A stretch of DNA of 19,401 nucleotides, taken from contig CAZECW010000169.1 in assembly GCA_964510585.1 (NCBI GenBank), positions 1 to 19,401 of the forward strand, read 5' to 3'. The position numbers were made by a program, and so were the translations under genes. Of this stretch, positions 11,249 through 19,401 are shown in pieces. Below the pieces are notes generated by a model. It made no database searches. It was not told the origin of the DNA and saw only the letters and a list, made by a program, of their open reading frames with translations. This DNA is from an uncultured archaeon. Its GTDB lineage: Archaea; Asgardarchaeota; Jordiarchaeia; Jordiarchaeales; Jordiarchaeaceae. The number at the start of each line of letters is the position of its first letter. Within the stretch, counting starts at the first letter, position 1.

Positions 11249-12217
11249 CTATCCTATCTCCCTCTTTAGACGCTCCATTATCTCCTTTGCCCCATTCACC
11301 ATTTCGTCTATGACTTCTTTTACTGTAAGGATTTTGTCTATTCTCCCCACAGCCATACCTAAGGAAAGTATTCCGGCATCGATGTCCCCTTCTTCCCAAG
11401 CTTTCTTGCCCAGTTGACCACTTATTACTGGAAGGACTTCCTCAAGCGTAGCGCCCCTGGCCTCCATCTGCTGAGCTGTTAGTGCTGGCTTGTTCTTTAT
11501 AACTCGGGAGGCGAGTTTAAAGGGTTTCCCTATGATGGTGGTGTCGCTGTCTTTGGCGTTCACAATCCATTCTTTAATCTTGGGGTGCACGTTACACTCC
11601 TTGGTGGCCACGAAGCGTGTTCCCATAACCACGCCCTCTGCACCTAGGGCTAGGGCGGCGACGAAGCTTCTTGAATCGCATATGCCTCCCCCTGCACAAA
11701 CTGGAATTTTTACGGCGTCAACAGTTTCTGGAATTAGTATTAGGGAGGTTACATCATCGAGTCCCGGATGTCCTCCGCACTCGAATCCCACAACAGTTAC
11801 CGCGTCGCATCCTATTCTTTCTGCGGTTTTGGCGTATCTGACCCCTGCAACCTTGTGTATTATCTTTATGCCTGCTTCCTTTATTCGGGGAAGGTACTGT
11901 TCGGGACTCGTTCCCGAGGACTCAATTATTGGTACGCCTTCATCTATGAAGAGTTCAATGTCCTTATCTAAGCCTCTGGGTCTCATGGCGGGAAAAAGAT
12001 TTAGATTCACTCCAAAAGGTTTTTTTGTTAGTTCTCTGGTTCTCTGAATCTCCATACGTAAATCTTCGGGATTCTCAAAAGTTGTTGCAGCAAGGATTCC
12101 AAGGCCGCCCGCATTCGAAATGGCTGCAACGAGTTCAGCCCTGGAAAGATTGTGCATAGCTCCGCCAATAATGGGATACTTAATACCAAAAAGTTCAGTA
12201 ATTCTGGTCTTAAACAT
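11249..12217 (-). CDS. Nitronate monooxygenase / FabK-like FMN-dependent oxidoreductase
   Basis: MFKTRITELFGIKYPIIGGAM, GLGIL, GFECGGHPG, AGGI, ALGAEGVVMGTRF; ATG at 12217 preceded by GGTGG. Confidence 0.88.
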   Translation of the reverse strand: MFKTRITELFGIKYPIIGGAMHNLSRAELVAAISNAGGLGILAATTFENPEDLRMEIQRTRELTKKPFGVNLNLFPAMRPRGLDKDIELFIDEGVPIIESSGTSPEQYLPRIKEAGIKIIHKVAGVRYAKTAERIGCDAVTVVGFECGGHPGLDDVTSLILIPETVDAVKIPVCAGGGICDSRSFVAALALGAEGVVMGTRFVATKECNVHPKIKEWIVNAKDSDTTIIGKPFKLASRVIKNKPALTAQQMEARGATLEEVLPVISGQLGKKAWEEGDIDAGILSLGMAVGRIDKILTVKEVIDEMVNGAKEIMERLKREIG

Positions 12218-12337
12218 TTTAAACCACCTTACATTCAAATATTTGATAGAATTACAACTATGTCTCATATATTCTTATTGATAAAAAATAGGCTACCCCT
12301 TTTAAATCCAGAATTTTTTAGTAGTGGAAAAAGGGAA

Positions 12338-12515
12338 TTGACACTCTCCGCGACTAAAGTCGGGAGATTCTTGCTTCTGGCTCATCGGGAGCCTTCGAAG
12401 CAATGGGTGTGCCATCACCCAGTTAACACGCCCTTCCCTTAAGGGAACGGCGTCTATGTTGGCACCCTCATGGGGGCTGCGTCTTGTTTAGCCTCTTAAG
12501 CCCAAGCCAAACCCT
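12338..12515 (-). ncRNA. Putative TnpB omegaRNA (reRNA) scaffold; predicted guide is the flank 12337-12318; 5' end approximate
   Basis: Hairpins at 12428-12453, 12404-12421 and 12371-12403 plus the right-end hairpin, ending at TCAA; TATA-like motifs upstream. Function inferred from position and structure. Confidence 0.55.
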
Positions 12516-12530
12516 TCAGCTACCAACAAC

Positions 12531-12563
12531 TATTTATATACCATACTTTCAAATAAACTTTCT
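12531..12563 (-). promoter_or_regulatory. Candidate BRE/TATA promoter(s) inside the mini element, directed toward the right end
   Basis: AGAAAGTTTATTT (12563-12551) and TATATAAATA (12540-12531) on the minus strand. Confidence 0.45.
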
Positions 12564-12612
12564 GGCGATTCATCCCCACGACTAAAGTCGGGGGCTTTCT
12601 CACCAAGGTTTT

Positions 12613-12920
12613 GTAACAAGAGATTTTGGTGCTTCCTTAGCTACTCTTCTGGTTATAACTCCAGTTGCACCTGCAAGCAAACTCTCTCCCTTCGTTGCAC
12701 CATAAACCCAAGCATCCTGCGAGGGATATTTTTCCACCAAACTTAGTAAGGCGCTTTCCAATTCGTCTACCGTATTGCATTTTCTATCTAGCTGGAATTT
12801 TTCCTGAGCATACCTGCTGGCATGCTCCAAAAAGAGTTTCAACACTGCGGGAGAAGTCAGTGGTTCATACCGATACGCATCGGCAATAGCTCTAACTATC
12901 CTCTCATTTCCAACAGGCAT
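12613..12920 (-). pseudogene. Hypothetical protein gene interrupted by the mini element; remaining 3' part at 12337-12265
   Basis: ATG at 12920 with GGGGTG RBS and TTTATATA upstream; ORF runs into the element at GTT AC|A AAA CCT TGG TGA; removing the element gives a 126-aa ORF. Confidence 0.7.
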
Positions 12921-13375
12921 ATTTTGCACCCCTTCCTGTCGTACGTTGGCAAACAAGTATATAAAATATATGTAATAAATTTTTTCCAAATAATAATTAT
13001 AAGTTTTATCCTAATTGTTTTTGGAGAGAGTGAATGTGTTGGTAGTGAATTTCCCCTCTTCTTTGTCTTTAGAGGCGAAGCATTTATAGGATTCCCTCTC
13101 GAGAGCCTCAAAATGAGATTTTTAGTGTTGGGCGCAGTATAGCCCTTCCTTTTTTTAAACAATGCTCCGTTGCGCTTGTTGTATGTTTGTAATTTGCCTT
13201 TTAGTCCCCTCAGTATTCTCTCTGTTTCCCCCTCTTTATTATATAAATGTGTTAACTAGGGGGTGAAAATGGATATCTTCAAGTCTGGCATAGAAACAAT
13301 TTATACGAATATGATTGTCGCCCGATTGTGGCGTGTGGTGTGGACTAGTTTAAAAGAGAACAGTTTTTTGGTTTT

Positions 13376-18310: not shown

Positions 18311-18489
18311 ATGAGTGAACTTAAAATCACTAATTCGGGGATAAATTTTCTGGATAATTTGTTGGGTGATGGATTCTTATCCAATTCTATTATTGTTATT
18401 TCACACCAGCCAGGCTCTAAAATTCGCCATCTAGGACTACAGATAGGATTAAACAAGTTCAATGAAAAGTTTCACCTGATCAACGTTAC
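18311..18489 (+). pseudogene. 5' part of a RAD55/KaiC-like (RecA-fold) gene interrupted by the IS
   Basis: SGINFLDNLLGDGFLSNSIIVISHQPGS resembles the TGIxxLDxLLGGG...GxPGSGKT N-terminus; frame enters the IS at AAC GTT AC|A. Confidence 0.7.
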
Positions 18490-18587
18490 AAAACCGTTGG
18501 CGGGAAAGCCCCCGACTTCAAGTCGTGGGGATGAATCGCCAAAAAGCTTATAGGCTGGTATATTGATAGATTTATGGTTATCAATAG

Positions 18588-18977
18588 ATGGAATACAGAC
18601 ATTCTCGAAACCAAGTCTATCCCATCAACTACCACCTCGTCTGGCGCCCCAAGCGCAGAAAGCCAGTCCTCGTAAACGAGGTAAAAATGCGGCTGGAGCA
18701 AATCCTGAGAGAAGCAGCAAAGGAGAAGGACGTGGAAATCCCGGCGCTAGAAGCGCAACCAGACCACCTTCACCTGTTCATGTCTGCATATCCCCAACTT
18801 CCAGCCCACAAGCTCGTCAAGGCATTCAAGGGCCACTCGTCTCACCACTTAAGAAGGGAGCTCCCCCACCTGCTTAAGCTTCCGTCACTTTGGACGAACT
18901 CATACCTCTTTTCGACAGCGGAGAACATGTCGAACAAAACCATTCAGAAATACATCGAAACGCAGTCGAGGCTGTGA
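18588..18977 (+). CDS. tnpA: IS200-type Y1 (HUH) transposase, possibly decaying
   Basis: NYHLVW.PK, PDHLHL (HUH), LWTNSY, KYIETQ (catalytic Tyr...Gln). Confidence 0.93.
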   Translation: MEYRHSRNQVYPINYHLVWRPKRRKPVLVNEVKMRLEQILREAAKEKDVEIPALEAQPDHLHLFMSAYPQLPAHKLVKAFKGHSSHHLRRELPHLLKLPSLWTNSYLFSTAENMSNKTIQKYIETQSRL

Positions 18978-18979
18978 AA

Positions 18980-19401
18980 ATGAAGCGTACAAACACGTTT
19001 GCACTCGCCCCAACGAAAAAACAACACAGGCAGCTGTCGGAGATCGCAGATGCATGCGCCCGACTGTGGAACGAACTTAACTATCGTCGCAGGCAATCTT
19101 TCTTCAAGGGCAAGATCAACTGGGAGAGCCGCGACCTCTACAACAAGTATAAGGGTATAGTGGGCTCCGCAACCGCCCAGCAAATCCAGAGGAAGAACAA
19201 CGAAGCCTGGAAATCGTTCTTCGCCCTACTTAGACAAAAAGCCGAGGGAAAACTCCCGCCACACACACAAAAGGTGGCACCGCCGCGCTACTGGAAGGAT
19301 TGGAAGAAAGGAAAGCGGAAGCTCTTGATTCTAATCAGGCGCGACTGCTATAGGATGGAAGCGGGCATCCTGAAGCTCCCCTCGAAACTGAAAGTAAAGT
19401 G
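18980..19401 (+). CDS. tnpB: TnpB RNA-guided nuclease, N-terminal 140 aa (partial; absent from the supplied ORF track)
   Basis: My translation: MKRTNTFALAPTKKQHRQLSEIADACARLWNELNYRRRQSFF...GSATAQQIQRKNNEAWKSFF...PPRYWKD...; archaeal IS605 OrfB type; starts 2 nt after the tnpA stop. Confidence 0.92.
   Translation, partial: MKRTNTFALAPTKKQHRQLSEIADACARLWNELNYRRRQSFFKGKINWESRDLYNKYKGIVGSATAQQIQRKNNEAWKSFFALLRQKAEGKLPPHTQKVAPPRYWKDWKKGKRKLLILIRRDCYRMEAGILKLPSKLKVK

Follow-up and report, generated by a model that had tools for sequence, protein, structure and literature searches.

A multicopy, gene-less IS200/IS605 mini-element of an uncultured hot-spring archaeon keeps a putative omegaRNA-type scaffold that may serve TnpB in trans

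Can a transposon that has lost both of its genes still supply a guide RNA to a nuclease made elsewhere in the cell? This question is raised by a short repeat in the window, the stretch of 19,401 nucleotides from an uncultured archaeon that was analysed here. A preliminary description had read the segment as a stand-alone omegaRNA cassette with its own TATA box, stacked hairpins, and a guide taken from the flanking DNA. Checking the coordinates in the sequence found the hairpins, both TATA-like boxes, the NWVMAHPLL reading frame, and the flank guide all where they had been placed. The element as a whole and its left boundary comprise the following features.

12338-12616: repeat unit, the TTAC target plus the 275-bp mini-element.
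12338-12612, sense on the minus strand: gene-less mini-element, 275 bp, 3' of the TTAC target.
12613-12616, minus strand: TTAC target, adjoining the left end; predicted TnpA target and predicted TnpB TAM.
12564-12612, minus strand: left end, with an 18-nt spacer, a bulged hairpin (12574-12594), and then GATGAATCGCC.

The mini-element has no coding capacity, with stops in all three sense frames and no Pfam-bearing ORF, and its two ends are directly repeated bulged hairpins that are 84% alike, without inverted terminal repeats. A BLAST comparison against its own 3.78-Mb, 217-contig assembly returned 29 full copies at 90-99% identity and about 100 half copies that break off at contig ends after ~140 nt, and on the basis of these two figures we put the copy number at roughly 70-80 in the 3.8-Mb genome. 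About 100 of the 434 contig ends of the assembly fall ~140 nt inside the mini-element, which makes the repeat a main source of the assembly's fragmentation. In three hot-spring metagenome runs, unitigs within the mini-element were ~65-90 times as deep as the flanks; this is a summed depth, not a copy number, and it agrees with the copy count in order of magnitude. TTAC stands directly before 89 of the 90 left-end junctions in the genome, with unrelated flanks on the two sides; the right terminus reads AGTGTCAA in 29 of 29 full copies, TCAA being the right-end cleavage motif; and the 3' flanks of 70 copies are distinct in every case. No contig in the metagenome runs X1-X3 spans the junction without the mini-element. 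Because of the TTAC/TCAA signals, the repeated end hairpins, the many copies, and the lack of coding capacity, we conclude that 12338-12612 is a non-autonomous internal-deletion derivative (PATE/MITE) of an IS608-like IS200/IS605 element. The copies are young (mean pairwise identity 94%), so that conservation within the family says little, and copy identities of 94-99% imply a spread that was probably recent.

PATEs were defined in Haloquadratum walsbyi as deletion derivatives of IS605-type elements (PMC3119063), and the mini-element resembles them in having no ORF, IS605-type subterminal palindromes, no inverted terminal repeats, no target duplication, insertion at a 4-nt motif, many homogeneous copies, and an origin by internal deletion. 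Unlike the PATEs of Haloquadratum and Geobacillus, it resides in a hot-spring archaeon, taken here as being of the Thermoproteota type, and it differs from described PATEs in its ~70-80 copies against roughly ten or fewer tnpB loci, in a scaffold variant that lacks an assembled full-length parent, and in keeping the left-end box of a leaderless tnpA. With IS608 of Helicobacter pylori it shares the TTAC target, the TCAA right terminus, a distance of ~18-19 nt from target to left hairpin, and bulged hairpins, and the full element likewise has a Y1 TnpA and a TnpB; the archaeal host and the gene-less form of the derivative set it apart from IS608. At this locus the mini-element is inserted in the 3' end of an ORF with no Pfam family (12600-12989, minus strand), which now ends in SLVTKPW and a stop inside the left end and would be 24 codons longer without the insertion. 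A 96-codon GTG ORF on the plus strand (12152-12442), antisense to the start of a nitronate-monooxygenase-like gene and running into the mini-element, is probably spurious.

The possible parents and helpers of such an element were sought among the IS200/IS605 genes of the same genome, and one full-length relative lies in the window itself.

18486-19401, plus strand: full IS200/IS605 element with TTAC, left end, tnpA, and the start of tnpB; candidate helper.
18588-18977, plus strand: tnpA, matching Pfam Y1_Tnp (9e-35).
From 18980, plus strand: start of tnpB, matching HTH_OrfB_IS605 and running off the contig.
12398-12424, minus strand: NWVMAHPLL, remnant of a TnpB C-terminal tail, similar to the TnpB tails of contigs C8 and C81.

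Over 66 nt, the left end of the mini-element is ~90-97% identical to the tnpA/tnpB element that starts at 18486 (~90% for the 12338-12612 copy and up to 97% for other copies), and in many archaea tnpB elements have right ends that match its own at 85-100% identity. The mini-element preserves the TATA region of the left end, together with a ~134-nt segment that is homologous to the tnpB 3' end plus the right end. This homology covers the last 125-135 nt in nucleotide alignments with the elements of contigs C8 and C81 and, together with the tail remnant and the loci of relatives, bears out the earlier proposal that the structured segment derives from a tnpB 3' end and right end. The likeness of NWVMAHPLL to archaeal TnpB tails, noted in the preliminary description, is found within the genome: the tnpB 3' fragment on contig C8 has the C-terminal tail NWAMAHPLEVQI, which includes NWAMAHPLE, and the C81 TnpB tail reads NWVVAHPLLL...RGECQ. 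The frame of the mini-element also runs on to RGECQ at its last base, as does the end of the C81 TnpB.

Helper genes are present in the form of tnpA and tnpB in the window and tnpB on contig C81, which has an uninterrupted frame of 425 codons (L034:1315-2589, minus strand). The genome contains five TnpB zinc-ribbon matches, the C81 gene and the C8 fragment among them, and its tnpB loci number roughly ten or fewer. Further copies of the family of the 18486 element lie on contigs C7, C162, and C15, and 3' ends on C8, C54, C152, and C45; in the C7 copy the tnpB match is split over two frames, which may be a frameshift. We compared the RuvC-II region of the C81 TnpB with that of its relatives L105, L087, L093, and L111-L122, and found that this clade has, at the glutamate position, G with R, N, K, or D after it (IVLGRL, IVVGNL, IIAGDV); the RuvC-I and RuvC-III aspartates are kept throughout the C81-type clade. 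Because the canonical RuvC-II glutamate is missing, the nuclease activity of these proteins should not be taken for granted, and the clade may belong among the rearranged archaeal branches that PMC10691335 mentions. A sequence search of the PDB with the C81 TnpB found nothing beyond remotely similar TnpB and Cas12f proteins (E ~1e-5). The relatives of the host's TnpB carry names including Bathyarchaeia, Terraquivivens, Methanomethylicia, Culexmicrobium, and others.

Between the left end and the structured segment lie two TATA-like boxes and a leader.

12549-12558, minus strand: TATA-like box 1, GTTTATTTGA, directly after GATGAATYG of the left end; putative promoter element.
12531-12540, minus strand: TATA box 2, TATATAAATA, homologous to TATATTGATA of the full element.
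12472-12530, minus strand: predicted 5' leader and deletion junction, where a decayed piece of tnpB RuvC-III coding sequence persists.

In the full element, TATATTGATA begins 28 nt ahead of the tnpA ATG (18560 against 18588), and a TATA-to-ATG spacing of ~28 nt suits the archaeal TATA box of a leaderless mRNA. By this homology, the boxes are the putative left-end (tnpA) promoter region of the transposon itself, brought next to the scaffold by an internal deletion; the preliminary description had likewise supposed that a deletion set a promoter beside the scaffold, and the homology with the TATA region before the leaderless tnpA of the 18486 element agrees with it. RNA from TATA box 2 would start near 12508-12513, and in the 12338-12612 copy an RNA from either box is predicted to begin 37-57 nt ahead of the scaffold. 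Scattered stretches of the leader resemble the coding part of tnpB in the C8 and L057 elements, in a frame with stops, and from the TATA boxes to the right end the sequence is free of T5 runs. In the gene-less elements of other species (L095, L107, L101, L103, L086), a TATA-like box also follows GATGAAT (GTTTAAAT/GTTTAAAC, with a weaker GTTAAAC in L103), and in L095 and L107 it stands ~20 nt ahead of the scaffold. Because TATA box 2 is altered in 13 of the 29 full copies, it does not appear to be strongly constrained. A scan for sigma-70 promoters and intrinsic terminators, which is not suited to archaea, found neither. No RNA dataset containing the 1.4-kb stretch was found. Two contigs of the mat metatranscriptome X10 (depth ~3.5) cover 12338-12489 and 12338-12426 of related copies; they are not counted as evidence of transcription because strand and ends are not shown and DNA carry-over is possible.

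The segment that a transcript from either box would contain has the following parts.

12338-12471, minus strand: putative omegaRNA-type scaffold, with hairpins A-C, the right-end hairpin, and the tail GUGUCAA; matched by covariance model R1.
12428-12453, minus strand: hairpin A, ACGCC/GGCGT, with 13-nt arms that are 92% complementary.
12404-12421, minus strand: hairpin B, TGGGTG/CACCCA.
12410-12414, minus strand: UGGCA in the loop of hairpin B; candidate 5' strand of a pseudoknot.
12371-12403, minus strand: hairpin C, TTGCTTC/GAAGCAA enclosing GGCTC/GAGCC.
12345-12367, minus strand: right-end hairpin, bulged, with a UUUA loop.
12339-12343, minus strand: UGUCA, just 5' of the would-be guide; candidate 3' strand of the pseudoknot, sharing the TCAA cleavage motif.

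The minus-strand RNA of 246 nt has a folding energy of -88.5 kcal/mol, which none of 200 shuffles equals (z = -3.9). We used an alignment of 22 sequences, comprising mini-element copies, the tnpB 3' ends of the same genome, and ~210-bp gene-less elements of the sister species G004, from which RNAalifold, unaided, recovered hairpin A with 5 compensatory pairs and a long-range pairing of UGGCAC, in the hairpin B loop, with GUGUCA before the element end. In the unfitted alignment, hairpin A shows a compensatory difference of ACGCC/GGCGT versus GTGCC/GGCAC and hairpin C one of UUGCUUC/GAAGCAA versus UUGGAGG/CUUCCAA, and hairpin B occurs as UGGGUG/CACCCA versus CGGGUG/CACCCG and GGGCUG/CAGCCC. The covariance model R1 (four hairpins, 123 positions, 31 pairs) scores the 134-nt scaffold at 117.8 bits (E ~6e-37) and matches 22 of 41 related genomes of one phylum as well as over 80 sites in the genome to which the window belongs; the left-end hairpin of the mini-element also matches the part of R1 that describes the right-end hairpin. 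In alignment A2, built from 42 matches, 90% of cells are paired compared to 43-54% with the partners slid, and 27 of the 31 pairs have changes on both sides, values that 0 of 500 shuffles reach; A2 was fitted to R1 and is biased towards structure, and the margin over the slid controls is still large. The comparison with tnpB 3' ends and the covariance model, both proposed beforehand as checks on the scaffold, yielded homology as well as covariation.

A TnpB match on the same strand enters the R1 match in 13 of the 29 loci of relatives that were checked, and 10 of these matches span most of the protein; the other R1 loci among the 29 are without a TnpB match inside the stretch examined. Because the structure covaries and TnpB matches enter the R1 sites, the scaffold is, on this comparative evidence, an RNA structure linked to this TnpB clade, which also recurs without the gene. 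The covariation proves the structure for the tnpB-linked family, not the use that the RNA of the mini-element may have. No Rfam family reached its gathering threshold, and in a search up to E = 10 the best E-values, 4.5 and 7.2, belonged to unrelated families. Hairpins A and C of the mini-element are unlike both full-length families assembled in the genome in sequence, and its cross-compatibility with the TnpB of other families is for this reason an assumption. The G004 loci L056, L059, L060, L062, and L069 hold ~210-bp elements that consist of TTAC, left end, TATA-like box, and a ~120-nt scaffold; these would come near a minimal guide cassette because the predicted start falls right at hairpin A. 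Two partial sites lie on other contigs of the assembly: at C136:4663-4744 a right end, 100% identical over 36 nt, is joined to unrelated upstream sequence, and C107:7057-7233 is a second scaffold of the C81 type (177 nt).

The closest structural reference is the omegaRNA of ISDra2, for which cryo-EM work (PMC10097598) gives a 116-nt minimal scaffold with four stems plus a 16-nt guide, a dispensable 5' 115 nt, a tetraloop, UUUA, spanning -20 to -17, and pseudoknot pairing of -6 to -2 with an upstream segment. The scaffold of the mini-element likewise overlaps the tnpB 3' end and right end, with a guide that by position would come from the flank; it has 123 model positions and four stems, a UUUA loop at -21 to -18, and a -6 to -2 segment that is complementary to an upstream segment, the partner lying ~103 nt upstream in ISDra2 and here in a hairpin loop ~75 nt upstream. 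In contrast, there is no detectable sequence similarity to ISDra2, and the predicted TAM is TTAC here and TTGAT in ISDra2. UGGCA and UGUCA (-6 to -2) pair in 96.5% of cells; both are near-invariant, with 7 one-sided changes that keep the pairing and 1 double change. The pseudoknot may reasonably be inferred by analogy with ISDra2, and it is not proven by covariation.

If an RNA passed through the right end, its 3' portion would come from the adjoining flank.

12318-12337, minus strand: 3' flank, would-be guide; the 20 nt after the element end, with T5 at guide positions 6-10.

Removal of 12338-12612 in silico leaves TTAC followed by the flank 12337-12318, which recreates the empty donor site that had been proposed as TTAC plus flank. 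A guide from the right-end flank, with its TAM and donor joint, would fit by position only. The T5 at guide positions 6-10 could end archaeal transcription early, and the 12338-12612 copy may be a poor source of guide; this caveat, raised before our analysis, holds for that copy and not for the family, in which a run of T5 or longer inside the first 16 nt of flank occurs in 3 of 70 copies. When TTAC plus the 16-nt guide was searched genome-wide, there was one match only, at C154:2120 for the copy on contig C12. A simple empty site is ruled out here, as only the right-side flank matches (198 nt, 98%) and the left side is unrelated; C154:2120 is a paralogue, strain variant, or rearrangement. The first 38 nt of C154:2120-2321 and C12:8956-9153 are identical, and the former would be a perfect TAM-plus-guide target of the C12 copy. 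A similar case, with 2 extra nt after TTAC, is C75:18718 relative to the C62 copy.

The reading that we prefer, with a probability of about 0.6, is that the mini-element is a PATE with an omegaRNA-type scaffold, whose guide RNA, made from the left-end promoter, would be used by TnpB in trans. The TnpA of full-length elements, such as that from 18486 onward, would mobilise the mini-element in trans. The left-end promoter would give a minus-strand RNA of ~170-190 nt that passes through the right end into the flank, and TnpB made elsewhere would bind and probably trim it. The guided TnpB would then cut the empty site that excision leaves behind, TTAC plus flank, and repair would restore the mini-element, which would in this way parasitise both the transposase and the nuclease. 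There are precedents: Meers et al., in work that describes PATEs in Geobacillus stearothermophilus, state that PATEs often encode omegaRNAs needing TnpB in trans from other elements (PMC10055086), and stand-alone omegaRNAs that have been mobilised work in trans with effectors that are compatible (Altae-Tran et al. 2021, according to the summary in PMC10691335). Like those stand-alone loci, the mini-elements would be guide-RNA loci without effector or transposase, with effector loci in the same genome; unlike them, the effector clade has a non-canonical RuvC-II position. We lean against, while still entertaining, the larger proposal that ~70-80 self-promoted guide cassettes (~10:1 over nuclease genes) load the RuvC-II-rearranged TnpB in trans and that homing drives the burst or protects the copies.

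The scaffold could instead be a passive relic of a PATE that is mobilised by TnpA only, its tnpB 3' segment having been inherited from a recently amplified master copy and giving no functional guide RNA. The youth of the copies would suit this account, as would the region of TATA box 2, which is among the most variable parts of the mini-element; no cognate TnpB with the scaffold variant of the mini-element was found, a full-length parent carrying it being absent from the assembly and from the related loci examined; and Haloquadratum PATEs as short as 52 bp imply that PATEs need no RNA part (PMC3119063). Nevertheless, gene-less derivatives with at least 3-4 different internal junctions (the mini-element family, the G004 minis, L055, and L066), which come from this genome and its sister species, keep ~120 nt or more of scaffold, a part that exceeds the right-end hairpin, whereas ends of the TnpA type need far less. 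That all of these derivatives keep the scaffold, though the transposase should need little beyond the end hairpin, would be indirect support for a function. The same layout is found in several gene-less elements of other relatives, and the differences of hairpins A and C from the full-length families are compensatory, both of which speak against a relic. The density of private substitutions in the scaffold, 14 per 100 columns, is about half of that in the left end and promoter (25-26), which is weak evidence in the same direction. On balance, we consider a passive relic unlikely, and the use of the RNA by TnpB in trans remains the reading that we favour. An exact 25-mer from the middle of the mini-element is absent from the genome collection of other species.

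The element could also act mainly as a mobile promoter, with transcription directed outward from its left-end promoter into neighbouring genes, or as a regulatory RNA with a small-RNA role apart from TnpB. The predicted transcript is codirectional with the downstream nitronate-monooxygenase-like gene (12268-11249, minus strand), and regulatory RNAs derived from IS200 exist in bacteria (PMC5435999). However, the flanks of the 70 copies are unrelated and the conserved part is exactly the tnpB-linked scaffold, and the T5 right after the 12338-12612 copy would limit read-through there, which makes either role quite improbable. That the stacked hairpins act as single-stranded DNA signals for TnpA, rather than as RNA, appears highly improbable. 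Single-stranded DNA hairpins at the two ends do take part in IS200/IS605 transposition (PMC10055086), and the four helices that covary include the right-end hairpin. The recognition known for TnpA, however, involves a single subterminal hairpin at each end, and hairpins A-C are set back 35-135 nt from the right end; in full elements they fall within the tnpB coding tail, as omegaRNAs do.

The principle of a guide RNA that travels apart from its nuclease is already published, both for stand-alone trans-acting omegaRNAs (in the account given by PMC10691335) and for PATEs that encode omegaRNAs (PMC10055086). Particular to the mini-element are its very high copy number relative to tnpB, its uncultured hot-spring archaeal host, and a scaffold family outside Rfam. 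With strong covariation across one archaeal phylum and its parallels to ISDra2, this family could aid the annotation of these genomes and could help to pick compact thermophilic pairs of TnpB and guide to test. Were the larger proposal true, the mini-element would be a hyperparasite of TnpA and TnpB and would give its uncultured hot-spring archaeal host a natural multi-guide system. The preferred reading would make it a clean archaeal case of a guide-RNA gene that travels without its nuclease and far outnumbers it, and as such it bears on how TnpB may be shared among selfish elements.
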